The position numbers and the translations under genes are program-made. A stretch of DNA of 42,502 nucleotides from an uncultured virus (IMG/VR IMGVR_UViG_2522572172_000008) (taxonomy: Duplodnaviria > Heunggongvirae > Uroviricota > Caudoviricetes), in the IMG/VR virus record IMGVR_UViG_2522572172_000008. One strand, written 5' to 3'. How positions within the stretch are numbered: position 1 is the stretch's first letter; each line of letters starts with the position of its first letter. The notes below the pieces were generated by a model, which worked only from the letters and a program-made list of their open reading frames with translations, had not been told where the DNA came from and did no database searches. This document shows positions 5,967 through 41,501 of the stretch, one piece after another.

Positions 5967-8900
5967 TTAATAGTTCACTCGACAATTTTGTTTCCCTACA
6001 ATTTCTTGCATCTGTGTAATCATCGTCAAATTAAAATGAGTGAAGTTTACTTTGTAAGTATTGCCCCCAAAGATAAAATAAACAGGCACTGTACTATCTT
6101 CTGACTCATATTCCTTCAAATAATCTCTTACTTTTACAAATTGTTTTCGTGCATTATTCACGTTGCGAGACCCTAAAAGAACAATCTCTTTTGGATTCCC
6201 ATCATTACCAACATCATGGATATCAATCACTCGTTTTACCATGATTTGTGTGCCTCGGTCATCCTCTTCAAATTTACCTTCAACCGCAATGATACTACCT
6301 TCATGTAACAGACCTGCACTTTGCTCTAATACGTTAGAGAATGCAACACACTTAATCTCCCCTGTTGTATCTTCTAATTTAAATACATTAAGAGGTTTAT
6401 TGTCTTTTTTCGTGTAGTACGTTTCAATTTCCGTAATAATACCTGCAACACGAATAGATTTTTTATAAGAACGAACTCTATCTGCTTCATCTTTTTCATC
6501 TGTATCTTGTAAGAACCCAATCTCACAAAATTCTTCTTCAGCTAACAATGTTTCATACGAATCAAGAGGATGTGCTGAAATATAAAACCCTGCAAACTCT
6601 TTTTCCTTTTCCAATTTAAAATCAATGTTAAACTCTGTTAATGTAGGAGTTAATACCTCTCTGATTTTATCTTGGCTTAATAACGGAATATCAAAGATAG
6701 ACAATTGTCCTGATTGATAGTCTTTTCGTTCTTGTGAAGCTACCAATAGTAAAGCATCTAACATCATTAATTTCGAATTACGTGTACCTTCAAAGCTATC
6801 GACTGCACCTGAGAAGATTAATGCCTCTAATACTCTTCTATCCACTTTTTGATATTTTGCCATTCGAACCGCACAATCTTGGAAATTACGGAAGTCTCCT
6901 CTTGTATCTCTTTCCTCAATTAAACGAATTGATATTTTACCCATATTTCGAATACCTTGTAAGCCAAATCGAATAGAATTCCCTTCAACCGTAAATACTT
7001 CTCTTGATTTATTTACATCTGGTGGTAAGACATCAATCTTTTGTCGTTTACTCACAGCCATGTATGCTTTGATTTTATCTGACATTGTGATAAATGAATT
7101 TAAAGTAGCACACATATATTCTGTTGGATAGTAATACGCTAAGAAACCTGTTTTAATCGCAATATTCGCATAACCTGTTGCGTGAGATTTATTGAATGCG
7201 TAACGTCCAAATTTCTTCATTCGTTCCCATAAAGCAATTGCAATATGTTCATCAATTCCATTTGCAACACAACCTGTAATTCCTTTTTCCTCTGAACCGT
7301 GTACAAAGTATTCACCATACTCATTTAAAAGGGCTTCTACTTTCTTTGCCATCCCTTTTCGAATGGTATCTGATTGTCCTCGTGTAAAGTTTGCTAATTC
7401 ACGAACGATAAACATACATTGCTCTTGATATACGATGATGTTGTAAGTCGTTTCTAAAATAGGTTGCAACTGAGGAACATCATATTCAATTCCTTCAGGC
7501 TTTAACATGTTTTTAATGTAATTCGGAATTTCATCTAAAGGACCTGGGCGGTACAACGAAATCCCTGCAATTAAACGTTCAAACAATTGTTTCCCCATTT
7601 CAGCATCTAATGTATGTGCATCTTGGAATAACTCCATCATGAAGTTTGTCATTCCTGCACTCTCTAATTGGAATACCCCTGCCGTATTACCTTTTGCAAT
7701 GTATTCATAGACTCGTATATCATCGAGTGGAATACTTTCAAGTGTAATGGGTTCTAACCCTAACTCTTTTCGTTTCTTATTAATATCAATAAAGGCTCGT
7801 CCCATAACACCCATTGTACGAAGACCTAAGAAGTCCATTTTTAGCAAGCCCATCTCTTCACATTCATCTTTGTTATACTGAGTTGTATGCTCATAGGCTC
7901 CTGTATCTGTGTTCTCTAATAGAACCTGAGGAATATGGTCTGTTACGGCACTTGGGGCGATTATGACACCGCAAGCATGTTGTGATACGTTACGAGGTAA
8001 ACCTTCAATACGAAGAGCAATATCAACAATTTCTTTTACCTCTGCATCAGAATGATACATATTATAGAATTCTGGACTCTCATTCAATGCTTTGTTTAAT
8101 GTCATACCTGGTTTTTCAGGGATGGCATTTGCAATCATATTTCCTAATGGTTTATCTAATACACGAGCTACATCTCTAACAGATACTTTTGCGGCCAATG
8201 TACCAAATGTAATAATTCGAGAAACTGCTTCTTCTCCATATAATTCTTTCACATAATCAATTACTTCTTCACGTCTTGTATCCTCGAAATCAATATCAAT
8301 ATCTGGCATTGAAATTCGGTCAGGGTTTAAGAATCGTTCAAAAATAAGTCCATATGGAATTGGGTCAATATCCGTAATATCTAAAGCATATGCAACTAAA
8401 GAACCACAAGCAGAACCACGACCAGGTCCTACTAAAATACCTCTCTCTTTTGCAAATCGAATAAAGTCCCATACAATAACGAAATAACCTGGGAACCCCA
8501 TGGTTTTAATTGTTTCAATCTCAAAGGTTAATCGCTCTCGATATTCTTTACTTTTAAATTCTTTCTGCCCTTTAAATCGTTTCGCAAATCCTTCCCATGC
8601 TAAATGTTCAAAGTAATCCGCTTGCGATTCGAATCCTTCTGGTAGAGGGAATTCAGGTAGATAGATTTCTCCAAGTTGAATGTCAATGTTGATTCTTTCT
8701 GCAAGGTCAAGTGTATTATCAAGTAGCTCTGGCATATCCCAAAACAAATCTTCCATTTCTTCAGAAGTGTGAATGTGATAACCACTCCCTGGAAAGACCA
8801 TACGGTTTGGGTCATCCATTGTTGTTTTCGTTCCAATACATAACAGGATTTCATGTACAGAAGCGTCCTCAATTTCTGTATAATGGCTATCTGAAGTCGC

Positions 8901-9680
8901 AATTGCTTTTAAACCAAATTCTTCAGCCAATTGAAGCAACGCAGGATTTACAACTTCTTCCTCTTCACAACCATGTCTTTGGATTTCAATGTAGTAATTT
9001 TCCTTACCAAAAATATCAATCATTTTTTGTACTGTTTTACGAGCTAAATCCATGTCTCCCTTAATAATCGCTTGAGGGACAAGCCCCCCTAAACATGAGC
9101 TTGTTGAGACAACACCTTCACTATATTTTTCTAACCATTCCAGTTTTACATGAGGTTTATAATACTTATTCTCAAATCCCATACTTGTTAACTTAACAAG
9201 GTTACGATAACCCGTTGCATTAATCGCAAGTAACAACTGATGTTTACCTTCTTTTTTGCCATCTAAAGTTTCAATATATGCTTCAAAACCTAATATCGGT
9301 TTTTTATTTGCTTTTTTCATTTTTTTATAGAAATCTAACGTCCCGTACATAACACCGTGGTCAGTAATCGCACTTGCCCACTCCGTTTTTGCAACCATTT
9401 CATGAATTTTTGTTGCACCATCCAATAAAGAATATCCTGTATGTCCATGAAGGCTGACATAACGTACAACATCTAACACATTTCCATTTACAACTGCTCT
9501 AAACATTTGTCTGCGTTCGAATAAGTTTCGATTGTTCTTTTCAAATTTATTTAGAGGCAATGTACAGATAAGTTCAAAATTATCATCTTTATTCTTTTTT
9601 ACCGCAACTTTATCTCCTTCGAGATGCAGTTCAACGATAGTTCCTTTTTCAATGCTTAAATTAGGAAATACAACTTGCAC
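5967..9680 (-). CDS. dnaE: DNA polymerase III alpha subunit (DnaE type) with N-terminal extension
   Basis: PHP motifs (HGHTGYSLLDG, TDHG, TSDSH), GPGRGSA, FERFLNPDRxSMPDIDID, KMDFLGL, YAFNKSHA and a C-terminal OB fold; GTG start with GGAGAGG RBS. Confidence 0.95.
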   Translation of the reverse strand: MQVVFPNLSIEKGTIVELHLEGDKVAVKKNKDDNFELICTLPLNKFEKNNRNLFERRQMFRAVVNGNVLDVVRYVSLHGHTGYSLLDGATKIHEMVAKTEWASAITDHGVMYGTLDFYKKMKKANKKPILGFEAYIETLDGKKEGKHQLLLAINATGYRNLVKLTSMGFENKYYKPHVKLEWLEKYSEGVVSTSSCLGGLVPQAIIKGDMDLARKTVQKMIDIFGKENYYIEIQRHGCEEEEVVNPALLQLAEEFGLKAIATSDSHYTEIEDASVHEILLCIGTKTTMDDPNRMVFPGSGYHIHTSEEMEDLFWDMPELLDNTLDLAERINIDIQLGEIYLPEFPLPEGFESQADYFEHLAWEGFAKRFKGQKEFKSKEYRERLTFEIETIKTMGFPGYFVIVWDFIRFAKERGILVGPGRGSACGSLVAYALDITDIDPIPYGLIFERFLNPDRISMPDIDIDFEDTRREEVIDYVKELYGEEAVSRIITFGTLAAKVSVRDVARVLDKPLGNMIANAIPEKPGMTLNKALNESPEFYNMYHSDAEVKEIVDIALRIEGLPRNVSQHACGVIIAPSAVTDHIPQVLLENTDTGAYEHTTQYNKDECEEMGLLKMDFLGLRTMGVMGRAFIDINKKRKELGLEPITLESIPLDDIRVYEYIAKGNTAGVFQLESAGMTNFMMELFQDAHTLDAEMGKQLFERLIAGISLYRPGPLDEIPNYIKNMLKPEGIEYDVPQLQPILETTYNIIVYQEQCMFIVRELANFTRGQSDTIRKGMAKKVEALLNEYGEYFVHGSEEKGITGCVANGIDEHIAIALWERMKKFGRYAFNKSHATGYANIAIKTGFLAYYYPTEYMCATLNSFITMSDKIKAYMAVSKRQKIDVLPPDVNKSREVFTVEGNSIRFGLQGIRNMGKISIRLIEERDTRGDFRNFQDCAVRMAKYQKVDRRVLEALIFSGAVDSFEGTRNSKLMMLDALLLVASQERKDYQSGQLSIFDIPLLSQDKIREVLTPTLTEFNIDFKLEKEKEFAGFYISAHPLDSYETLLAEEEFCEIGFLQDTDEKDEADRVRSYKKSIRVAGIITEIETYYTKKDNKPLNVFKLEDTTGEIKCVAFSNVLEQSAGLLHEGSIIAVEGKFEEDDRGTQIMVKRVIDIHDVGNDGNPKEIVLLGSRNVNNARKQFVKVRDYLKEYESEDSTVPVYFIFGGNTYKVNFTHFNLTMITQMQEIVGKQNCRVNY

Positions 9681-17326: not shown

Positions 17327-19723
17327 TTATGCTACTTCTCTTACATCTACAGTCGTTTCTTCCTCTACAAAGCGAATTCTCATAAGAGCTTGTACCATTT
17401 CAACTTGGATTCCCCCTCCTAATTCATTGAATAATTTACTACTTGCAAACAAGAATTCTTCTATTGGTTTCTTCTGATTGTACACTGCTAATTTAACATC
17501 TTGTTTTAAATCAGTTAAAGAATCAATATGATGAATCCAATTTTTATCCACGATTTCTAATAGAATTTGCTTCATTTGTTCTTGAATTTCATTTTGAACA
17601 ACAAGCTCTTTTTTCACTTCAAAGGCATCCATACAATTCTGTAATATAGATTCTTTAATTTCTTCAATATCCTTCTGTAATGCACCATCCACATTGACTA
17701 CACCAACCATTGAATACTTCATTTCTAAAGTACGTTTCATTTCTTCCAATGCAGGTTGTAAATCTTCATCTTGTCCAAATTCTTCATACTTGTGGAGTTT
17801 TTCAGCAATTACTGATTCAAAGGCATCTCTGGCCATACTTTCTAACTGTCCTACGATATCAAAGCTTGGTTCTAATACATCGTCCCTTTGTTGATAAATG
17901 ACTTTTCGTTGTTCGTTAATAATAGAATCGTATTTCATCGTTTCCTTACGAGCATCATAATGCATTGCTTCTAAATTTCGTTGGCACTTACCAATCGCTT
18001 TTGTAAGGAATTTATTTTCCACTGCATCATTATCATCTTTAGGCATAAGTGAAATCATTTCCTTAATTTTATCTGATGCAAATACTCGCATTAAATCATC
18101 TTCAAAAGAAACATAGAAACGACTAATCCCTTTATCACCCTGACGACCAGAACGACCTCTTAACTGGTTATCAATTCGTCTATTATCATGACGTTCAGAA
18201 CCAATAACTTTTAAGCCACCAACCTCTGTAACGCCTTCACCTAACTTAATATCTGTACCACGACCTGCCATGTTAGTAGCAATTGTAACTGCTCCTTTTT
18301 GTCCTGCATTCATAATGATTTCAGCTTCAATATCATGAAACTTTGCATTTAAAACTTGATGAGGGATTCCCTCTTTTGTTAATAAGTCTGATAACTCCTC
18401 TGATTTTTCAATTGTCGAAGTACCAACTAATACAGGCTGTCCCTTTGCGTGTGATTTTTTAATATCTTCCACAATAGCAATAAATTTTGCTTTCTCTGTA
18501 AAATACAACTTATCTTGCTTATCTTTTCGTTGCACAGGCTGATTTGTAGGAATGACAACAACCTCTAAACCATATGTTTCACGAAATTCAACTTCTTCCG
18601 TTTCTGCTGTACCTGTCATACCTGATAATCGCTTATATAGTAAAAAGAAGTTTTGATAGGTAATAGAAGCTAATGTCTTATTTTCTTCTTGAATTCGAAC
18701 ACCTTCTTTTGCTTCCATCGCTTGGTGTAATCCATTCGAATATCGTCTTCCTTCTGACACACGTCCTGTATGCTCATCAATAATAAAGACCTCTCCATCT
18801 TTCACTAAGTAATCTTTATCTCTTTTAAAGAAGTAGTGAGCTTGTAGCGATTGGTCTACATGATGACGAATTGTAGTATTCTCTAAATCCGCATAGTTTT
18901 TCATACGGAACATCTTTTCTGCTTTTTCCATACCGCTATCAGTCAACATAACAACTCGAATCTTTTCATCTACTGTATAGTCATCCTCATGTAAAGAACG
19001 GACAAACATATCTACAATTGCATACCATTGAGAAGGTTCTTCGCCTGGTCCTGAAATAATAAGCGGTGTACGTGCTTCATCTAATAGAATGCTATCCACT
19101 TCATCGACAATACAGAAATGTAGAGGTCTTTGCATCTTATCTACTTTTCTCTTCACCATATTGTCTCGTAAATAATCAAATCCAAGTTCTGAATTGGTAA
19201 TATAGGTAATGTCTGAATGGTAAGCTTCTCGCTTTTCTTCCATTGTTAACTCACCTGTAATTACAGAACTACTTAGTTGTAAGAAATCATATAGTGGCTT
19301 CATAATACCTAAATCTCGTGTTGCTAAGTAATCATTTACTGTTACAACATGTACTCCTTCACCACTAAGAGCATTCAAATAAACAGGTAGTGTGGCAACC
19401 AATGTTTTTCCTTCACCTGTCTTCATTTCTGCTACATTTCCTTCATGTAAGATAATGCCACCGATTAATTGAACCTCGTAATGCCTCATTCCTAATACTC
19501 GACTGGAAGCCTCACGACATACAGCGAATGCTTCTGCCAATAGGTCATCAACCGTTTCTCCCTTTTGTAAACGTTTTTTAAATTCTGCTGTTTTTCCTTG
19601 CAATTCTTCATCTGACAAGGATTTCATTTCATCTTCTAATGCCACAATACTTTTGACTTGCTTTGTTACTCTCTTCACTTTACGTTCAGAATTCGTTCCG
19701 ATTATTTTATATAAAAGATTCAT
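17327..19723 (-). CDS. secA: Preprotein translocase SecA paralog lacking the C-terminal Zn-binding tail
   Basis: AEMKTGEGKTL, VVTVNDYLA, VDEVDSILLDEARTPLIISG, TNMAGRGTDI and QLRGRSGRQGD; ends at 798 aa with no CPCGSG. Confidence 0.95.
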   Translation of the reverse strand: MNLLYKIIGTNSERKVKRVTKQVKSIVALEDEMKSLSDEELQGKTAEFKKRLQKGETVDDLLAEAFAVCREASSRVLGMRHYEVQLIGGIILHEGNVAEMKTGEGKTLVATLPVYLNALSGEGVHVVTVNDYLATRDLGIMKPLYDFLQLSSSVITGELTMEEKREAYHSDITYITNSELGFDYLRDNMVKRKVDKMQRPLHFCIVDEVDSILLDEARTPLIISGPGEEPSQWYAIVDMFVRSLHEDDYTVDEKIRVVMLTDSGMEKAEKMFRMKNYADLENTTIRHHVDQSLQAHYFFKRDKDYLVKDGEVFIIDEHTGRVSEGRRYSNGLHQAMEAKEGVRIQEENKTLASITYQNFFLLYKRLSGMTGTAETEEVEFRETYGLEVVVIPTNQPVQRKDKQDKLYFTEKAKFIAIVEDIKKSHAKGQPVLVGTSTIEKSEELSDLLTKEGIPHQVLNAKFHDIEAEIIMNAGQKGAVTIATNMAGRGTDIKLGEGVTEVGGLKVIGSERHDNRRIDNQLRGRSGRQGDKGISRFYVSFEDDLMRVFASDKIKEMISLMPKDDNDAVENKFLTKAIGKCQRNLEAMHYDARKETMKYDSIINEQRKVIYQQRDDVLEPSFDIVGQLESMARDAFESVIAEKLHKYEEFGQDEDLQPALEEMKRTLEMKYSMVGVVNVDGALQKDIEEIKESILQNCMDAFEVKKELVVQNEIQEQMKQILLEIVDKNWIHHIDSLTDLKQDVKLAVYNQKKPIEEFLFASSKLFNELGGGIQVEMVQALMRIRFVEEETTVDVREVA

Positions 19724-33644: not shown

Positions 33645-35630
33645 TTAAGCGATTTTTTTCTTTATTTGAATGTGGTTATGATTCTCTTCTACTTCATCCA
33701 AAGGTTTCGCTTGATGTGCTTTTTTAATTAAATCCACTTCAAATTCAAATGGCATTACATAAGCAACAGAGCTTTCTCCATTCATACGAATCAGTAACTC
33801 GCCTCGTTGTGCTTGTAGTAAGAAGTTTCTTTCTCCATCAGATAATTTGAATGTGTCTTGTAATAAATCAATATCCGTACTATCTTGACGTAGGAAGATA
33901 TTGACTACAGCATTCGTTAATACCGCTTTACCTTGCTCATTATTCGCAAATTCGATAAAGTTTTGAGATGCTACTAACAATCCACCGTTACGTTTACGGA
34001 TACGTCTTGAACAGTTTTCTAAGAATTGAGATGTATATTCAAATCCTGCCATATTTTTATTTACTAACATCCATGCTTCATCACAGACAATACGTTTTTT
34101 GATATGTGGATTTTTCTTGGCAAATTTCTCCCAAGTCCAACTCATTGAAACGAACATGCCAATTGGTCGAAGTACGCTTTCTTCTAATCTACTAATATCG
34201 AAAGTAACAATTGGTGCATCTTTAAAGTTTGCTAATTCTTCAGATGTATAACAGTCGAACATGTCATACACGCCACCCTCTTTAAAGATTTTTAGTGCAT
34301 TTGCTAAACTTTCTAATTCTTTATTCTGTTCTTTTCTTGCATAAGACTCAAATTCATCATGGAAGTCTGTAAATCTTGGCATTTGACGTTTACGACCTGT
34401 TTCTGAGAACTCACCAGTTAACTCATCAAAGTATGGTTCATTGTCATATAACGAATCAGGGGCTGATGTAAAGCCTTTATCCTTATATACTTTTGCAAGA
34501 TTGTGACCTACAATAGAACGTTGTTCAGGTGTTAATCCCCCTGCCATAACCGCTACAAGGTTTAACAAGTCGGCAACTTTCGATTTTAAATCAATCTCCT
34601 CTTTACCAGTGTCCACATTATATTCTGTCTCTACATCAAACGGATTAAGGAAGTGTTTAGAGTCAGGTGCTACATAAATATGTGCTCCTCCTAATGCTCT
34701 TGTAAGTGGTTTGTACTCTCCCTCAGGGTCAATAATTACTGTACGTACACCACGTAATGCACTTCTCATTGTTAATAAGGACACGAAGAATGTTTTACCA
34801 GAACCCGCTTGACCGAATACCGTAATATTCGAGTTATTTAATTTATTTCTATCATAAAAATCAATTAATACAGGGGTAGACGTTGATAAATTCACTCCAC
34901 AGAAAATACCTGTTTCATGAGAGATTTCAGAATTATAGAATGGGAAACATGCTGTTAGAGCTCCAGAGTTGAAGTTTCTGAATGAATCTAATATATAAGT
35001 TTTCCCAAATGGAAGAGCTGATTTATAGCCATCATCTTGTCTTAAATAGGTAGGCATCATATAAACCTTTCTACCCTTTAATTTGTTGTCTAACTTTTGG
35101 GATTCCTTATTCAACTCCTCTTTAGAATCCGCATATAAATTCGATGTGATTTGGATGTAAAAAAGGTTTTCATAGTTTTGCTCTAATTTTTCACGTTGGT
35201 TATATAATTGAACAATCGTATTTCTTAATCGTGTAATATCACGAATATTCCCCTTTTCTGTTTCGATTTGTAATTGCGATTCGAATTGCGTAAGTTTATG
35301 CGTTAATTCATCAAGAGCTGTTCTATCATCAGCAGGTTCGATATATAACGCTGTATCTAAATCACCTTCATAGCTATATAACAAATCAAGCCAACCCACA
35401 GATACGTTTGTAGGAAATCCCTGCATAACCATATTACGCACGTATTTATTTCCTACTTTTAAACAATCATCAAAACTTCTATCAAAAGAAGGAGGAGCAA
35501 CAAAATCCTTCATACTCCTTGTCCCTCTTTCTAATGTATCTGTTTGTTCTTCTTTATGATTGGCATTTAAATCAATAATTGCATCTCCGTTTATTTTATT
35601 TTTTGATTTTTTCTTCTTAAAGAATGACAT
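33645..35630 (-). CDS. virB4: VirB4-family conjugative transfer ATPase
   Basis: GQAGSGKT, IIDPEGEY, LNPFD, CDEAW, RRIRKRNG and ASQN. Confidence 0.92.
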   Translation of the reverse strand: MSFFKKKKSKNKINGDAIIDLNANHKEEQTDTLERGTRSMKDFVAPPSFDRSFDDCLKVGNKYVRNMVMQGFPTNVSVGWLDLLYSYEGDLDTALYIEPADDRTALDELTHKLTQFESQLQIETEKGNIRDITRLRNTIVQLYNQREKLEQNYENLFYIQITSNLYADSKEELNKESQKLDNKLKGRKVYMMPTYLRQDDGYKSALPFGKTYILDSFRNFNSGALTACFPFYNSEISHETGIFCGVNLSTSTPVLIDFYDRNKLNNSNITVFGQAGSGKTFFVSLLTMRSALRGVRTVIIDPEGEYKPLTRALGGAHIYVAPDSKHFLNPFDVETEYNVDTGKEEIDLKSKVADLLNLVAVMAGGLTPEQRSIVGHNLAKVYKDKGFTSAPDSLYDNEPYFDELTGEFSETGRKRQMPRFTDFHDEFESYARKEQNKELESLANALKIFKEGGVYDMFDCYTSEELANFKDAPIVTFDISRLEESVLRPIGMFVSMSWTWEKFAKKNPHIKKRIVCDEAWMLVNKNMAGFEYTSQFLENCSRRIRKRNGGLLVASQNFIEFANNEQGKAVLTNAVVNIFLRQDSTDIDLLQDTFKLSDGERNFLLQAQRGELLIRMNGESSVAYVMPFEFEVDLIKKAHQAKPLDEVEENHNHIQIKKKIA

Positions 35631-36603
35631 CTTTATCAGCCTCCATCTCAGGAATATTTGGAATTTCTACAGATGGTGTTTTGTAGTAACCTGCAACAGC
35701 TTCTCGAATTTTATTGATTTCTTGAATCGCTTTATTTGCTGAACCTTTCACATCTGCATCTACTCCATTACTCTCTAATAATTCTTTTTCTAAGCGAATT
35801 TGAGATTCATATAAAATCCAATCCAATTTCCCTTCTGGTAATACCTCTTGTAATGGATTCTTCTTACCTTCCACCATAAGATTTAAGTATTCACCACTTA
35901 CAACACCTTCAGCATGTGAATGGTTTTGTCTGTGATAGACACCAAATATTACTTCTGCAACTTCATTCGTTTCTAAAATGTTTCCCTTTACACCAATACC
36001 TGCTAATCCATCAATTAACATTTGGCAACGTGTATAAAGTTCTTTTGCAGAATAATCGTATTTTTCCTCATCCGTAGCTGTCGTTAACTCATTCGCTTCC
36101 ATATAAGGTACGATGATATATTTTTTCTTTTGTTTGTTATTACCAATAATTGTTGGTAAATTTGCCATTTCTGAATAATAAGCGTCCCCATAACTTTCTA
36201 AATTCGGATAGTCTTTTATTGTAGTCAGAATATCATCTTCTAATAACTTCAATGTTTTCGCATTATCAACTGTTCTTGTATGAACAAAGAATGTGATTGG
36301 ATGCGATAATGAATTTAAGAAACGTTGGAAAGATAAATCAATAATTTCTTTTTCTTTTTCTGTTTTCAAATCATAGTTAATAGAGTTGCATTCAATAATC
36401 GCTCTATAGTGATGTTGACCTAAATCAATCATTGAATCGGTAATATCTTTATACGGCAGGAAATCTTGTGCATTTTTAATGTCCTCCCTTGTAGATGTAT
36501 CCGCTTGTTTTGGGTCGGTTTTCTTCAATTGATACATAACAGCCCATCCCATACCACCAAATAGAGCAAGTAATAAAACGGTTCCTATAATTACTCCTGT
36601 CAT
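35617..36603 (-). CDS. Conjugation protein with N-terminal TM anchor (TrsD/VirB4-accessory-like)
   Basis: AQDFLPYKDI, SINYDLK and FQRFLNSL; lies between the PrgI-like gene and virB4, overlapping virB4. Confidence 0.7.
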   Translation of the reverse strand: MTGVIIGTVLLLALFGGMGWAVMYQLKKTDPKQADTSTREDIKNAQDFLPYKDITDSMIDLGQHHYRAIIECNSINYDLKTEKEKEIIDLSFQRFLNSLSHPITFFVHTRTVDNAKTLKLLEDDILTTIKDYPNLESYGDAYYSEMANLPTIIGNNKQKKKYIIVPYMEANELTTATDEEKYDYSAKELYTRCQMLIDGLAGIGVKGNILETNEVAEVIFGVYHRQNHSHAEGVVSGEYLNLMVEGKKNPLQEVLPEGKLDWILYESQIRLEKELLESNGVDADVKGSANKAIQEINKIREAVAGYYKTPSVEIPNIPEMEADKDVIL

Positions 36604-36605
36604 TC

Positions 36606-36911
36606 TTACACTTCCCTTCTACGGTTTATTAGTTTTTTTGTTTTTCTCTTTAAAGCACGTTTTCGACTGATATACTCCCATAATGTCATGTCCAATTTTT
36701 TCTTAAAGGCAAATGGTGTTCCTGACAGTAACCCAATAAGCCCTAAGAAACAGGATATAATTCCGTTTCCAATTGTGACAAAGCTCAAAATGAAGAATAG
36801 TGCTCCCAGACCGAAGCCACCTAATAACCAGAAAAATTGATTTAAATTTAATACGCCCCCGATAACTTTTTCCTTCTCTTTCATATCAGGAGGAACTGGA
36901 TAAATCTTCAT
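36606..36911 (-). CDS. PrgI-family (VirB3-like) protein
   Basis: YPVPPDMKEKEKVIGGVLNLNQF followed by two TM helices and a basic tail. Confidence 0.8.
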   Translation of the reverse strand: MKIYPVPPDMKEKEKVIGGVLNLNQFFWLLGGFGLGALFFILSFVTIGNGIISCFLGLIGLLSGTPFAFKKKLDMTLWEYISRKRALKRKTKKLINRRREV

Positions 36912-37071: not shown

Positions 37072-37410
37072 ATGAATAAAAAAATAGTAATTATGGAGTA
37101 TAGTGATGGGCAAATCTCTGTATTGTTTGAGGATAAAACGAGAAGGATTATTAGTAGAGGCGAGTTAGGTCTAATTCAATTAACACAACAACATCGTAAG
37201 AATCCTAAAGTAGAATATATGGAGTTAACTGAGCTTGAGGTTGTTATTAGATTAAGCTTTATTAGAAGATTTATAGAAAATAATGTATTAGATGGTTCTG
37301 TGGATAAAGTTCAACTAAAACATCACATTGATAAATTGAATTTTTACCATCAGTATGGAATCATTTCTGATGAAGATTTTGAGGATTATATGAGTCGAAT
37401 AAAGGCATAA
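37072..37410 (+). CDS. Hypothetical protein on the opposite strand within the tra region
   Basis: GAGG RBS; 112 aa; terminator follows. Confidence 0.7.
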   Translation: MNKKIVIMEYSDGQISVLFEDKTRRIISRGELGLIQLTQQHRKNPKVEYMELTELEVVIRLSFIRRFIENNVLDGSVDKVQLKHHIDKLNFYHQYGIISDEDFEDYMSRIKA

Positions 37411-37413
37411 AAA

Positions 37414-37440
37414 ATAAAGTACCTATTTTAGGTACTTTAT
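37414..37440. terminator. Bidirectional terminator
   Basis: ATAAAGTACCTA-TTT-TAGGTACTTTAT perfect stem between convergent genes. Confidence 0.75.
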
Positions 37441-38585
37441 TGCATGAGAGGTAATAGTTTTTCATTCAGGATACGTTCGATGTTTTTAGGATTTTTATTG
37501 AACTCTTTATAACTTATCCTGATTAGTAAAAGCTCATTTGATATACAATATTCATCCTTTATTCTATCTTTTATTTGTCTTTTTCTAAACGATTCCTCTC
37601 CCCCAAAATGTTCAACAGGCTTTATATGTTGTATTCCATCAAATTCAATGAGGGTTACAATTTTATTTTCTTTAAAAACTGCAAAATCAAATCTAAGTTT
37701 CCCTTTATAAATACAATCATCAAAAGTGTATTCCTTTTCATATTCAATGTTCTTACTTTCAAGATAGTTCATTATAAGCTGTTCACCTTTACTGGAGTTG
37801 CATTTTATACAAACCGAACCTACCAATAAACTATCAGGATTCAAATCAAATATATGATTACACTTCTTATGCCTAACTGTTATTTTCACTCTACTGCCCT
37901 GATACTCACTTAATAAGGTGTATTCATCATCATAGATATCAGCTATTTCTCTTTTGAATTCTTGATGTGTTTTTAATTTATTTAACCTTCTTCTTTGTTT
38001 TGTACATTCAGGGCATGTTGCTTTTCTTTGAAGAAATCCATCTGCTCTTGGACTCCATTCGTACTCACACTTATTGTGTCTGATTTTAATCTTATTTGAA
38101 TTACTTTTATACTGTCCTATCACACTGTATTCAGAGCCATAAATACTATCTATTTCTCTTACATAGTCTTCATGACTTTTCCTAATATTACCTGCACAAA
38201 AAGAACATCTCGCTCCTAATGAAATGAAATCATTTGGTCGAATATCATATTCCCTTCCACACATATTATGCTTTACCGTTAGAGGGGTTTTACTATTCTT
38301 ATACTCTCCTAAAACCTCATACTCATCACCTACTAATTTTTTTATCTCTTCTTTAAATGATTTTGTTGTCTTTTTTATTTTTCCATAACAATTTGGACAT
38401 CGTTTACTTTTAAAAAATACCCGTGGCTGTACATCCCATTCATAGTCACAAGCATCATGTCTCATACGAATTAATTCACTTGACGTCTTATAAACACCTA
38501 ATACAGTGTATTCGTTCCCTCTTTTTTCTTTCACTTCTTTCAGGAAATATTCATGCGTTTTTTGATAACCTCTTGGCATTTTCAT
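37437..38585 (-). CDS. Free-standing putative homing endonuclease: four Zn-ribbon repeats plus a Vsr/DUF559-like (EDxHD-type) nuclease domain
   Basis: Four ~62-aa repeats (EY.VLG.Y...H..C...P..F...C..C), then SKGE...LRFDF...IEFDGIQH...DRIKD...LIRISY. Confidence 0.8.
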   Translation of the reverse strand: MKMPRGYQKTHEYFLKEVKEKRGNEYTVLGVYKTSSELIRMRHDACDYEWDVQPRVFFKSKRCPNCYGKIKKTTKSFKEEIKKLVGDEYEVLGEYKNSKTPLTVKHNMCGREYDIRPNDFISLGARCSFCAGNIRKSHEDYVREIDSIYGSEYSVIGQYKSNSNKIKIRHNKCEYEWSPRADGFLQRKATCPECTKQRRRLNKLKTHQEFKREIADIYDDEYTLLSEYQGSRVKITVRHKKCNHIFDLNPDSLLVGSVCIKCNSSKGEQLIMNYLESKNIEYEKEYTFDDCIYKGKLRFDFAVFKENKIVTLIEFDGIQHIKPVEHFGGEESFRKRQIKDRIKDEYCISNELLLIRISYKEFNKNPKNIERILNEKLLPLMQ

Positions 38586-38659: not shown

Positions 38660-38698
38660 GAAAAAACGCACCTGGAAATTATCCAAGTACGTTTTTTT
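38660..38698 (-). terminator. Intrinsic terminator directly after pilin exon 3
   Basis: Minus strand AAAAACGTACTTGGA-loop-TCCAGGTGCGTTTTTT, about 15 nt after the TAA at 38713. Confidence 0.75.
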
Positions 38699-38712: not shown

Positions 38713-40010
38713 TTATTTGAATGCACTGTAGAAAACACTGTACCCTGTCTTTCGACATATTTCATAAGGGGTTAGACTATATCATACTCCACAGCTTCAT
38801 CTGTTTGGAGTGTTGGCACTTCGGAGGAAGGATTTTCACCTTCTATCTCCTACTCTACTCACTCTGTTTTTTTAACAGGTTTTCGATAGTCGTTACACTT
38901 GCTACTATGTTATATAGTAGATTAGCACGGTATTATCAAGCTATCTACATCTCTGTAGACCTTAGAGTCTCTTACGAAGCGTATTCGCCTATGGTCATTT
39001 CTCCTTTTGAGAGAAAGGCTTGTAATTGTCATACAAGCAGTCTTAGTTAACTTCTACCGTTAGCATGATTGCATCATCACACACCCTGCACTTACAGGTT
39101 CACCAACTGTTTCCTTACGCCATTTCTGGCATAGGGGACTTTTCCTTTCGGATAATCCTACGATGATAGTTACGGCACCTACTTTCCTTTTTTGTCTTTC
39201 GACACATCTTAAGGAAAAGACTATATCATACTCCACAGCTTCATCTGTTTGGAGTGTTGGCACTTCGAAGGGGGAGTTTCACCACAACCTCCTACTCTAC
39301 TAACTCTATACTGTATATAGGTTTTCGATAGTCGTTACACTTTTAATTATAAATATATATAAATAATACATTTACAATCACTTAGCACGGTATTAACAGC
39401 TATCTACATCTCTGTAGACCTTAGTCTCTCTTACGAAGCTCATTCGCCTATGGTCATTTCTCTTTTTGAGAGAAAGGCTTGTAATTGTCATACAAGCAGT
39501 CTTAGTTAACTTCTACCGTTAGCATAATAATAAACATTTATTATTACACACCCTGCATTTACAGGTTCACCAACTGTTTCCTTTCGTCATCTCTGACGCA
39601 GGGGACCATTTAGTTAATCCAGCGGCCGCAATACCACTCCAAATTAAGCCTGTTAACGCTTGAGAACGAGCTTGTGGGTTACCCGCAGATGCACCAAGTT
39701 TCATGAATTGGAAAATGAAGAACATAATCATTGAAACCGCACCGATACCAGAGATACCAACGATGAAGTTACGGTATTTGTTGATGAAATTAGTCCAAGC
39801 AGAACCACTATTAGAAGTATTGCTCATACCTCCACCACTAAGTTCTAATTTACCGTCACTACCAACTTTAACTTCAACATCGCCGATTTGTCCCTCTGCA
39901 TGTGCTTGCATCACAGGTAGTCCAAAGCCCATCATCATCACAAGAGTTAAGAAGAAAGCCATAATTCCGTTTTTCACGGAAAGGTGTTTTCTTTCGATAG
40001 CTTCTGTCAT
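38713..40010 (-). CDS. VirB2/TrbC-like pilin, spliced: join(39617-40010, 39155-39181, 38713-38735), 147 aa
   Basis: AGGAGG RBS; signal peptide QAHA|E; TM1-GNPQARSQA-TM2; the joined exons read GGA T|TA GGT GCC GTA ACT ATC ATC GTA GGA T|TT TTC TAC AGT GCA TTC AAA TAA and complete TM2; upstream of virB3/virB4-like genes. Confidence 0.85.
38736..39154 (-). ncRNA. Group I intron 2 (419 nt, no ORF, probably subgroup IA)
   Basis: 5' exon GGAU pairs with GUCC (U.G wobble); GAAAA pairs with 3' exon UUUUC (P10); core AAUACCGUGCUAA, GUGUAACGACUAUCGAAA and UGAUAUAGUC; P3 GUUGGU/GCCAAC; GUC-GAAA-GAC P9 hairpin; terminal G. Confidence 0.9.
39182..39616 (-). ncRNA. Group I intron 1 (435 nt, no ORF, probably subgroup IA)
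   Basis: Same P1 (GGAU/GUCC), P3, P7 (GACUA/UAGUC), P8 (ACUCCA/UGGAGU), P9 GAAA tetraloop and terminal G; extra helices between P7 and P3'. Confidence 0.9.
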
Positions 40011-40166: not shown

Positions 40167-41354
40167 CTACCCCCTAATAAAGGTTTTAGTAGCTACAAAC
40201 TCCATCATATCCTCATTTATAAGCATGTCATACAATAAGTCACTCATCTTTTTCGCCACAATCCCCTTCATTCCTCGTGCTCCTAACCCTTTATGTAAAG
40301 CTTCTGTAGCAATATATTCAATTGCTTCATCTGTAAAACGCAAATCTTTTTGTTCTTCTTTGAATAGCTTTATATATTCAGGAATAATAGCCCCATTAGG
40401 CTTCATTAAGATATCCATTAAGTCTTCTTTCGTTAATGGGTTTAGTGTAAGTATTAGAGGAATACGACCAATGAATTCAGGAATCAGTCCAAACTGTATT
40501 AAGTCCTCAATACTTATAGGACTCATTTTAGAATTATCCTTACTTGCCTCTACTGTATCTGCATTCGTAAATCCAATCGTTTTTTTATGCTTATTCATTC
40601 GTTTATCAACAATCTCTTGCAATCCATCAAAAGCTCCTCCAAATATAAATAGAATATTTGAAGTGTTAATGGTCACAGTTGTTCGTTTAATAGATTGTCT
40701 ATTTTGTTCGATTGTAAAATTTGTACCCTCAATCATTTTTAATAAAGCTTGTTGAACACCCTCACCTTGCGGGTCTTTTGTACTTGTATGTGATGTACGT
40801 TTTGCTAATTTATCAACTTCATCAATAAAAACAATTCCTTTTTCAGCAGAGGAAATATCTCCATTTGCTTCTTGTATTAAAGAAGATAAAATACTATCTA
40901 CATCTTTTCCGCTATATCCTGTTTCTGTAATTGTAGTAGCATCTACGATTGTCATGGGAATATTAATGATTTTTGAAATCGTCTCTACTAAATGCGTTTT
41001 TCCACAACCACTCTCACCAATTAGTAATATGTTGTTTTTAGGAATGTTTGTTTTTACTTTGCTATAAATTCGTTTGTAATGATTATAAATTTCGACTGTC
41101 AAAACCTTCTTTGCATCGTCTTGTCCAATTACATCTCTATCCAATTTATTTTTTATTTCATGTGGTCGTAAAGGACGTGAATACATCAGAGATGCTTCTT
41201 TTTTATTTACATTCCCCTTATTAGTTTCACCTGTTTTCCCATGAAAATGTTCGTAAGCAATTCGTGAACAATTCTTACAAAGTCCAACACCTTCAAGTAT
41301 AGCAGGTAAGAAATCCTTTTTTTCAAAACCACAAAATGAACATTTTTTCTCCAT
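40167..41354 (-). CDS. clpX: ClpX-family AAA+ unfoldase paralog
   Basis: CSFC...CKNC Zn domain, VIGQDDAKK, GESGCGKT, FIDEVDK, GEGVQQALLK, IGF loop, GLIPEFIGR and GARG; GAGG RBS before ATG 41354. Confidence 0.9.
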   Translation of the reverse strand: MEKKCSFCGFEKKDFLPAILEGVGLCKNCSRIAYEHFHGKTGETNKGNVNKKEASLMYSRPLRPHEIKNKLDRDVIGQDDAKKVLTVEIYNHYKRIYSKVKTNIPKNNILLIGESGCGKTHLVETISKIINIPMTIVDATTITETGYSGKDVDSILSSLIQEANGDISSAEKGIVFIDEVDKLAKRTSHTSTKDPQGEGVQQALLKMIEGTNFTIEQNRQSIKRTTVTINTSNILFIFGGAFDGLQEIVDKRMNKHKKTIGFTNADTVEASKDNSKMSPISIEDLIQFGLIPEFIGRIPLILTLNPLTKEDLMDILMKPNGAIIPEYIKLFKEEQKDLRFTDEAIEYIATEALHKGLGARGMKGIVAKKMSDLLYDMLINEDMMEFVATKTFIRG

Positions 41355-41501
41355 ATACGCATCCCTCCTTGTAAAATGAATTACTTCATTATACGAATAT
41401 ATTTTTACTATAGTAAACAAAATAAATGTTCTATCTCTTTCAATACAACAATTCATGAAAAATAAAAACAGCACATCAAAATGTACTGTTTCGAAATTTC
41501 A

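Follow-up and report, generated by a model that had tools for sequence, protein, structure and literature searches.

Can a gene for a pilin-like protein of a type IV secretion system (T4SS) be interrupted by two group I introns, and are these introns removed in cells? This question is raised by positions 38713 to 40010 of the uncultured-virus record IMGVR_UViG_2522572172_000008 of IMG/VR, whose whole stretch of 42,502 nucleotides (nt) was analysed in this study and is called the window. The window represents plasmid BTB_502p of Bacillus thuringiensis Bt407 (NC_018878.1, 501,911 bp), which the 1.5 kb around the introns match at 100%. We are highly confident that two group I introns, which are diverged copies of each other, interrupt a 147-residue VirB2-type pilin-like gene in the T4SS cluster of this plasmid and are spliced out. 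The parts of the gene are as follows, in the direction of reading:

40025-40020, minus strand: AGGAGG ribosome-binding site of the pilin-like gene
39617..40010, minus strand: exon 1 of the pilin-like gene (394 nt), with the codons of the signal peptide, of the first hydrophobic helix, and of the beginning of the second
39182..39616, minus strand: intron 1, a group I intron of 435 nt without a sizeable open reading frame (ORF)
39155..39181, minus strand: exon 2, a 27-nt mini-exon for the middle of the second hydrophobic helix
38736..39154, minus strand: intron 2, a group I intron of 419 nt without a sizeable ORF
38713..38735, minus strand: exon 3 (23 nt, TAA stop included)
38661..38697, minus strand: terminator-like hairpin of 16 pairs with a T run, 16 nt past the pilin-like stop codon

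The coordinates of the exons, introns, and repeats were proposed in a first-pass annotation, and all of them hold. The ORF of the pilin-like gene begins at 40010 on the minus strand, and joining the exons by coordinates (394 + 27 + 23 nt) gave the single open frame that had been predicted, with 147 codons plus the stop. The unspliced frame, which was expected to run into intron 1 and end there, does so at a stop codon inside intron 1 and also encodes 147 residues. In the plasmid record, this 147-residue read-through ORF is annotated as a hypothetical protein, with zero introns annotated. The terminator that had been placed after the gene was found as the hairpin at 38697-38661; the region contains six terminator-like sites, compared with an expectation of 0.8 in shuffled sequence. 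Both introns lie within the last 50 nt of the coding sequence, 27 nt apart, in codons of the second helix, and the skipping of the 27-nt exon 2 would keep the reading frame. The complete second helix would be obtained only from the doubly spliced mRNA, and translation of the precursor would truncate the second helix and add 15 unrelated polar residues after it.

Evidence for splicing was obtained from public RNA data. Among 24 runs listed, six RNA runs contain all or part of the stretch, and four of them, from four studies (X15, X17, X19, and X20), were analysed. A joint that skips 435 nt, namely intron 1, was observed with a 2-letter ambiguity in X15 (two contigs), X17, and X19, which come from three separate studies. 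A joint that skips 419 nt, namely intron 2, was observed with a 1-letter ambiguity in X19. One X19 contig (record 18, 171 nt) contains exons 3, 2, and 1 without the introns, at 39615+, 39179-39154, and 38734-. Contigs across the exon-intron borders were also found in X15 and X19; because these two runs hold both border-crossing and joined contigs, precursor and product occur within one library. No exon 1-to-exon 3 joint, with exon 2 skipped, was found in the four runs. These data show that the cell excises both introns precisely where predicted and ligates the three exons; both of the junctions that the first-pass annotation had predicted for RNA are present in the RNA-seq contigs. The chemistry would be the usual guanosine-initiated two-step self-splicing, as judged from the intron family.

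Several points weigh against this reading of the RNA data. The RNA evidence consists of assembled contigs, not reads, and cannot show amounts. The exact intron 2 joint was found in a single X19 contig with a depth of 3, the intron 2 joint of X15 has one changed letter beside the junction, and X20 contains no joint. X17 has zero cover of intron 1 and of exon 3, and its intron 1 joint could stem from an allele without intron 1, since such alleles exist. The occurrence of the joined form in DNA runs is not reported beside the RNA joints. The joints might have come from intron-less or one-intron DNA alleles in the samples, as RNA libraries can contain DNA and both intron-less and intron-2-only alleles occur in related strains, or from template switching by reverse transcriptase. 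We consider such an origin very improbable, because intron-bearing and joined forms are found within one library in X15 and X19, and the identical intron 1 joint was obtained from three studies. In addition, the 1-2 letters common across each joint are too few for usual template switching, and the joints fall exactly after the exon U and after the final intron G of elements that score as group I introns.

Separately, two X15 contigs were observed to share the last bases of intron 2 (38735-38736) and then to continue for about 255 nt that are unlike the locus. Their sequence suggests that further related intron copies may be present elsewhere in the X15 strain, on the chromosome or on other plasmids.

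Having assigned splicing to this locus, we asked what kind of elements are removed. The first-pass annotation described 38736-39154 and 39182-39616 as diverged direct repeats, and this was borne out by a mean column identity of 86% (alignment with flanks) and by a BLAST identity of 81% within the plasmid record over intron positions 16-409. A third copy is absent from the 501,911-bp plasmid according to BLAST, and the covariance model R2, described below, likewise finds only two. GGAU ends both upstream exons, and a GUCC guide lies a few bases into each intron, giving a U.G and three pairs (P1). Both introns have a terminal G (omega G) at 39182 for intron 1 and 38736 for intron 2, which arises only with the predicted placement, within the 1-2 letter ambiguity of the RNA joints. 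Both copies also carry P7 GACUA/UAGUC, the GAUAUAGUC stretch, and a GAAA-capped hairpin near the 3' end. The group I core features that had been listed at first pass (P1 with U.G, P3, P4, P7, J8/7, P9 with the GAAA loop, and the terminal G) can all be seen in both copies, and they were placed at the following positions:

39606-39603, minus strand: GUCC guide of intron 1
39574-39568 with 39262-39256, minus strand: P3 of intron 1
39519-39515 with 39391-39387, minus strand: P4 of intron 1
39333-39329 with 39223-39219, minus strand: P7 of intron 1, with the 5' strand placed from the R2 alignment
39139-39136, minus strand: GUCC guide of intron 2
39133-39127 with 39122-39116, minus strand: P2 of intron 2
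39107-39101 with 38818-38812, minus strand: P3 of intron 2
39060-39056 with 38931-38927, minus strand: P4 of intron 2
38920-38914 with 38908-38902, minus strand: P6 of intron 2
38891-38887 with 38779-38775, minus strand: P7 of intron 2
38786-38780, minus strand: J8/7 of intron 2
38772-38769 with 38745-38742, minus strand: P9 of intron 2

P7.2, P8, the 5' strand of P7 in intron 1, and the inner P9 of intron 1 were placed by hand and may be one base off. The order of the elements is P1, P2, P3, two small hairpins, P4-P6, P7, P7.1/P7.2, P3', P8, P7', and P9. In both copies, P3 (a pseudoknot that crosses P7) pairs at 7/7 positions, P7 at 5/5, and P4 at 5/5, and P6 pairs at 7/7 positions in intron 2 and 10/10 in intron 1 from different sequences. 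Compensating changes or re-made stems between the copies were found in P2, the second small hairpin, P6, the P7.1 hairpin, and P9. Neither intron contains an ORF large enough for an endonuclease, and no Pfam match was obtained for the intron ORFs (109 residues antisense and 67 residues sense; the longest sense ORFs have 30-67 residues).

The two small hairpins (39098-39065 and 39565-39525, minus strand) lie between the 5' strand of P3 and J3/4, are flanked by conserved UGAAC and GGUGU, and are also present in the scanned phage loci. To our knowledge, the textbook group I layout has nothing at this place.

The covariance-model check that had been proposed at first pass gave a divided result. 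With RF00028, it failed and spoke against the class assignment, since neither intron gave a match at the gathering threshold (50 bits), and permissive settings gave 12.5 bits for intron 2, with intron 1 unmatched. With models built from phage introns, both copies were matched. The phage relatives were seen by blastn against phage records, in which parts of intron 2 match unannotated gaps within two kinds of split gene, the terminase gene of Staphylococcus phages and the DNA polymerase I gene of Bacillus phage SDFMU_Pbc; the gap in the latter is locus L003. Scanning viral contigs for motifs yielded 106 loci in the first scan and at least 112 loci in the second.

The layout read from the phage loci is P3, two small hairpins, J3/4, P4-P5-P6, P7, P7.1/P7.2, P3', P8, J8/7, P7', and P9. 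When this layout was laid on 11 phage introns, 90.6% of the cells paired, compared with 33.5-42.1% with the partners slid; 36 of the 54 pairs were changed on both sides, and none of the 500 shuffles reached the score. On 58 sequences, whose alignment was itself fitted to the model, 87.6% were paired, compared with 36.1-46.6% when slid. P3 is 100% paired in the phage relatives with 4/7 pairs changed on both sides, P7 is invariant in 11/11 of them, and helices 4 and 5 of the P4-P6 region were supported in the 11-intron covariation test. P3 was fully paired in 31/33 loci in 25 versions, although this count is generous because the best of several registers was chosen.

For the searches, the structure was divided between two models, R1 for its 5' part (from 10 phage sequences) and R2 for its 3' part (from 11), and neither includes the window sequence; owing to this split, P3 and P7 are in neither model. 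Loci L029, L031, L044, L061, L079, and L187 were left out before model building, and L224 was also left out from the 5' model, because the MAFFT alignments A3-A6 were poor in the P7.1-P8 region. R2 matched intron 2 at 38738-38900 (97.3 bits, E 1.8e-20) and intron 1 at 39185-39342 (67.1 bits, E 1.2e-13), with zero further matches on both strands of the 42.5-kb window and in the whole plasmid. R1 matched at 38992-39109 in intron 2 (39.9 bits) and at 39451-39576 in intron 1 (36.6 bits), and two weaker partial matches lie further downstream within these introns. The R1 alignment is incorrect in part across an insertion of about 120 nt in the P5 arm of the window introns, which is extra relative to L003 and disturbs it. 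Based on the R2 E-values and the lack of other window matches, a chance resemblance to the intron class is excluded.

The failure of RF00028 can be judged from the phage relatives. Among the 58 R2 matches in 98 sources, the window copies ranked 10th and 29th, and R2 also matched loci that pass RF00028. On related phage loci, RF00028 passed in 4/20 sources (five matches) and then in 1/20 sources (one match). L011 and L149, which have the window layout, pass RF00028, and the L003 gap is missed by it. As loci with the layout of the window pass while most relatives fail, the miss is a problem of sensitivity. Wider searches added little: a pattern search of genome contigs with exon 1 gave 184 pattern matches, of which 0 were confirmed, a scan of genome contigs with the core pattern gave a single locus (L006), which was left out of the comparison, and blastn in distant mode with intron 2 against plasmids returned only its own plasmid and a weak match (69%) to a plasmid of Clostridium. 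Judged from these models and helices, both window elements are phage-type group I introns.

Concerning the subgroup, helices 1-3 of the R2 structure sit between P7 and P3' (P7.1/P7.2) and covary, and both copies align there. In 1990, Michel and Westhof reportedly characterized subgroup IA by additional helices, P7.1/P7.2, located between P7 and P3'. Under this definition, the predicted P7.1/P7.2 helices place both introns in subgroup IA.

Tandem introns were common among the scanned phage loci. In L016, two RF00028 matches are located 17 nt apart (315-594 and 612-878); in one contig (L182, L183), the 5' motif occurs three times within about 1.4 kb; and Staphylococcus phage qdsa001 (L002) has three R2 matches around its split terminase gene.

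A different identity for the two elements, as IStron-like or other repeat insertions that are inactive relics and leave a pseudogene, would agree with a record that annotates only a 147-residue read-through hypothetical protein and no intron, and with the RF00028 score below threshold. This identity is scarcely credible in our view. A transposase-like ORF is absent from both elements, whose longest sense ORFs gave no Pfam match, and the insertions follow GGAT, compared with TTGAT for IStrons in the accessible text of PMC1924603. Furthermore, the exact RNA joints and the intact core oppose an inactive relic.

That the elements are spliced group I introns is further supported by the homologs of the host gene. 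Using exon 1 as the query, 227 homologs were found at E<=0.001. The first-pass annotation had expected uninterrupted homologs to share the predicted C-terminus, and 57 of the first 60 homologs have an uninterrupted hydrophobic C-terminus, the other three being read-through forms. In P0004, an uninterrupted homolog with 86% identity over exon 1, the last 50 residues are identical to those of the predicted spliced product. Exons 2 and 3 encode residues that vary little or not at all across the family (among them the invariant columns L132, G133, G140, and Y143). Among 20 close relatives in the B. cereus group, 12 read into intron 1, five have intron 2 only, and three are intron-less; in the five with intron 2 only, exons 1 and 2 are fused and the frame runs into intron 2. 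Presence or absence among near-identical alleles is typical of mobile introns. Because this pattern is found among the relatives, we infer from their sequences that both introns are, or recently were, mobile.

One read-through relative, P0130, has a tail whose beginning resembles intron 1 and whose continuation resembles the P2 region of intron 2. According to this hybrid sequence, P0130 may be a recombinant between the two introns.

The next question is what the interrupted gene does. The pilin-like identity proposed at first pass is supported by a score above the curated cut-off (26.6 bits) of Pfam PF18895 (T4SS_pilin) and by T4SS neighbours. The unspliced form scored 31.7 bits over profile positions 5-58 of 71, and the uninterrupted P0004 scored 34.9 bits over positions 6-71 of 71. 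The AlphaFold model of P0004 contains helices at 6-29, 80-107, and 112-146 (mean predicted local distance difference test, pLDDT, 76.8); as modelled, a signal helix precedes two hydrophobic helices that form a hairpin. NCBIfam NF045849 gave 31.9 bits on the pilin-like protein against its cut-off of 40. Foldseek with the pilin model against PDB retrieved no match at E<=0.001 and only generic helical hairpins, from which the model could not be told apart; this is a point on the negative side. The T4SS genes downstream of the pilin-like gene are the following:

36606..36911, minus strand: PrgI-family gene, the next T4SS gene downstream (Pfam PF12666, 29.8 bits; annotated as PrgI family in the record)
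35617-36603 and 33645-35630, minus strand: VirB4-like ATPase in two overlapping ORFs, the N-terminal part and the ATPase part, respectively (NF045971, E 1.7e-83)

Further downstream, genes for a 919-residue protein and for a large cell-wall hydrolase with SLT, M23, and NlpC/P60 domains were found. A Geobacillus subterraneus plasmid (L225) has the same T4SS gene order, with the pilin-like gene directly before prgI.

The two-ORF split of VirB4 was also observed in this Geobacillus plasmid and looks like the normal form. In addition, the plasmid region holds paralogs of housekeeping genes, namely a ClpX-like ATPase (40167-41474, minus strand), which immediately precedes the pilin-like gene, a complete SecA (17327-19723, minus strand), and a DNA polymerase III alpha subunit (5967-9680, minus strand).

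If the introns interrupt a working conjugation gene, production of the pilin-like protein, and hence plasmid transfer, would hinge on two splicing reactions. On the other hand, the introns may splice in a T4SS cluster that does not drive conjugation of BTB_502p, being a remnant or having another role in secretion or uptake, so that splicing would be irrelevant to transfer. In this respect, the plasmid is classed as non-mobilizable in PLSDB, where an MPF_T system but no relaxase is recognised, which is a further point on the negative side; no relaxase was noticed among the Pfam matches of the window, and no paper on the transfer of BTB_502p was found in the literature within reach. We hold this alternative to be somewhat unlikely, although it deserves serious attention. 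The usual Gram-positive set is present (pilin-like protein, PrgI, VirB4, the 919-residue protein, and the hydrolase with SLT, M23, and NlpC/P60 domains), its gene order is kept in the Geobacillus plasmid, its frames are intact, and the relaxase may be outside the window or of an unrecognised type.

If both introns are mobile, a source of the DNA cut may be sought beside them, where one further gene is located:

37437..38585, minus strand: free-standing endonuclease-like gene (382 residues), between the pilin-like gene and prgI

The first-pass annotation did not mention this gene. In its protein, treble-clef zinc fingers are repeated ahead of a C-terminal nuclease domain (PD-(D/E)XK-type). The protein matched phrog_559 (E 7.5e-97), phrog_9084 'homing endonuclease' (1.6e-27), and phrog_7140 'intron encoded nuclease' (2.2e-19); the PHROG families matched are labelled HNH endonuclease, homing endonuclease, and intron-encoded nuclease, which are annotations, not assays. 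A Pfam DUF4379 match was also obtained, and relatives of the 382-residue protein are named PDDEXK family nuclease or DUF2726. A sequence search of PDB with this protein gave nothing at E<=1, which is a point on the negative side. The gene is absent from this position in the Geobacillus plasmid and is, by comparison, an insertion. By analogy with 'collaborative' or trans homing, the neighbouring nuclease may conceivably supply the DNA cut for intron homing.

Two observations touch on this gene. Between it and prgI lies a 112-residue ORF (37072-37410, plus strand) that has no family match, is a hypothetical protein in the record, and is likewise absent from this position in the Geobacillus plasmid. 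P0137 is a 94% homolog of the nuclease, and there are hints that it perhaps belongs to the same plasmid as the intron-2-only pilin allele P0127.

A further-reaching reading would combine these elements. Both introns and the neighbouring nuclease might form one selfish unit that rides on conjugation, and the two ribozyme reactions within a 50-nt stretch might tie the supply of the pilin-like protein, and mating, to conditions that favour splicing. Each transfer would bring the unit to intron-less alleles, where the nuclease would cut and the introns would home, and the favourable conditions might be the translation state or temperature. We regard this combination as rather improbable; if true, the selfish unit would be the group I counterpart of the relaxase case of Ll.LtrB discussed below.

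How does this locus compare with known systems? In the accessible text of the B. cereus-group survey by Tourasse and Kolsto (2008, PMC2504315), group I introns are placed only in essential chromosomal genes and prophages. The same text describes IA2 introns, about 80% identical, at IVS1 and IVS2 of the tape-measure gene of B. cereus-group prophages. As far as described there, the window introns resemble this pair in occurring in the same bacterial group as two introns of about 80% identity at neighbouring sites of one gene, in the phage IA type with a core more conserved than P1, P2, P8, and P9, and in having near-identical copies common to several strains. Unlike the tape-measure introns, the host here is a T4SS pilin-like gene of a plasmid backbone, not a prophage structural gene, and the sites are only 27 nt apart. 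On the basis of these shared features, the tape-measure intron pair of B. cereus-group prophages is the closest parallel.

Among the introns of Bacillus phage DNA polymerase genes, L003 shows the same order of elements as the window introns, and its core aligns with theirs (R2, 112.4 bits). The host gene of L003 is a phage replication gene, whereas the window introns have no ORF and a longer P5 arm. The Bastille intron reportedly carries its own endonuclease. The DNA polymerase introns of SPO1 and Bastille are cited in the accessible texts of PMC3984707 and PMC2504315.

The window introns are also similar to the Twort-like introns of Staphylococcus phages in that several small group I introns without ORFs are located close together in one short gene, and qdsa001 has an 89% match over 46 nt to intron 2. 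The Twort gene orf142 is said to contain three introns and to undergo exon skipping. In contrast to the window introns, those of the Twort-like phages are in a phage gene, and the exon-skipped joint was not seen in the RNA contigs here. The Twort introns are cited in the consulted part of the review PMC3984707.

For conjugation, the relevant precedent is the group II intron Ll.LtrB in the relaxase gene of the lactococcal plasmid pRS01 (PMC7293003). In both cases, to the extent covered by the accessible text of that paper, an intron is located in a conjugation gene and a transfer protein needs RNA splicing. Ll.LtrB differs in being a group II retroelement with its own protein in a relaxase gene, compared with two group I ribozymes in a pilin-like gene here, and the dependence of transfer on splicing, which was shown for Ll.LtrB, would hold for the pilin-like gene only by extension. 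The locus resembles collaborative homing, as described in the accessible sources, in that introns without ORFs are found in a gene with an endonuclease-like gene immediately beside it. The known cases there are phage cases in which the cleavage site was mapped to the intron insertion site, whereas the host here is a plasmid and the nuclease is putative.

The accessible text of the review PMC3984707 lists group I introns in bacterial protein genes mainly from phages and prophages, with recA, nrdE/F, and flagellin in addition. Our literature search, with most subscription journals outside its reach, found no group I intron reported in a T4SS, pilin, or conjugative-plasmid gene, in agreement with the first-pass annotation, which knew of no described T4SS pilin case. 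Therefore, the host gene is what seems new, and no new mechanism is revealed.

The finding adds a DNA-transfer gene of a plasmid backbone to the hosts of group I introns, with the spliced product already present in public RNA data. It also means that many B. cereus-group plasmids carry a wrong annotation of the pilin-like gene, as a read-through protein of 147 or 171 residues, and that RF00028 overlooks this common class of phage introns. The natural alleles with two, one, and zero introns offer a ready system for the study of intron gain and loss between plasmids, and the question of whether splicing limits conjugation becomes testable at this gene.

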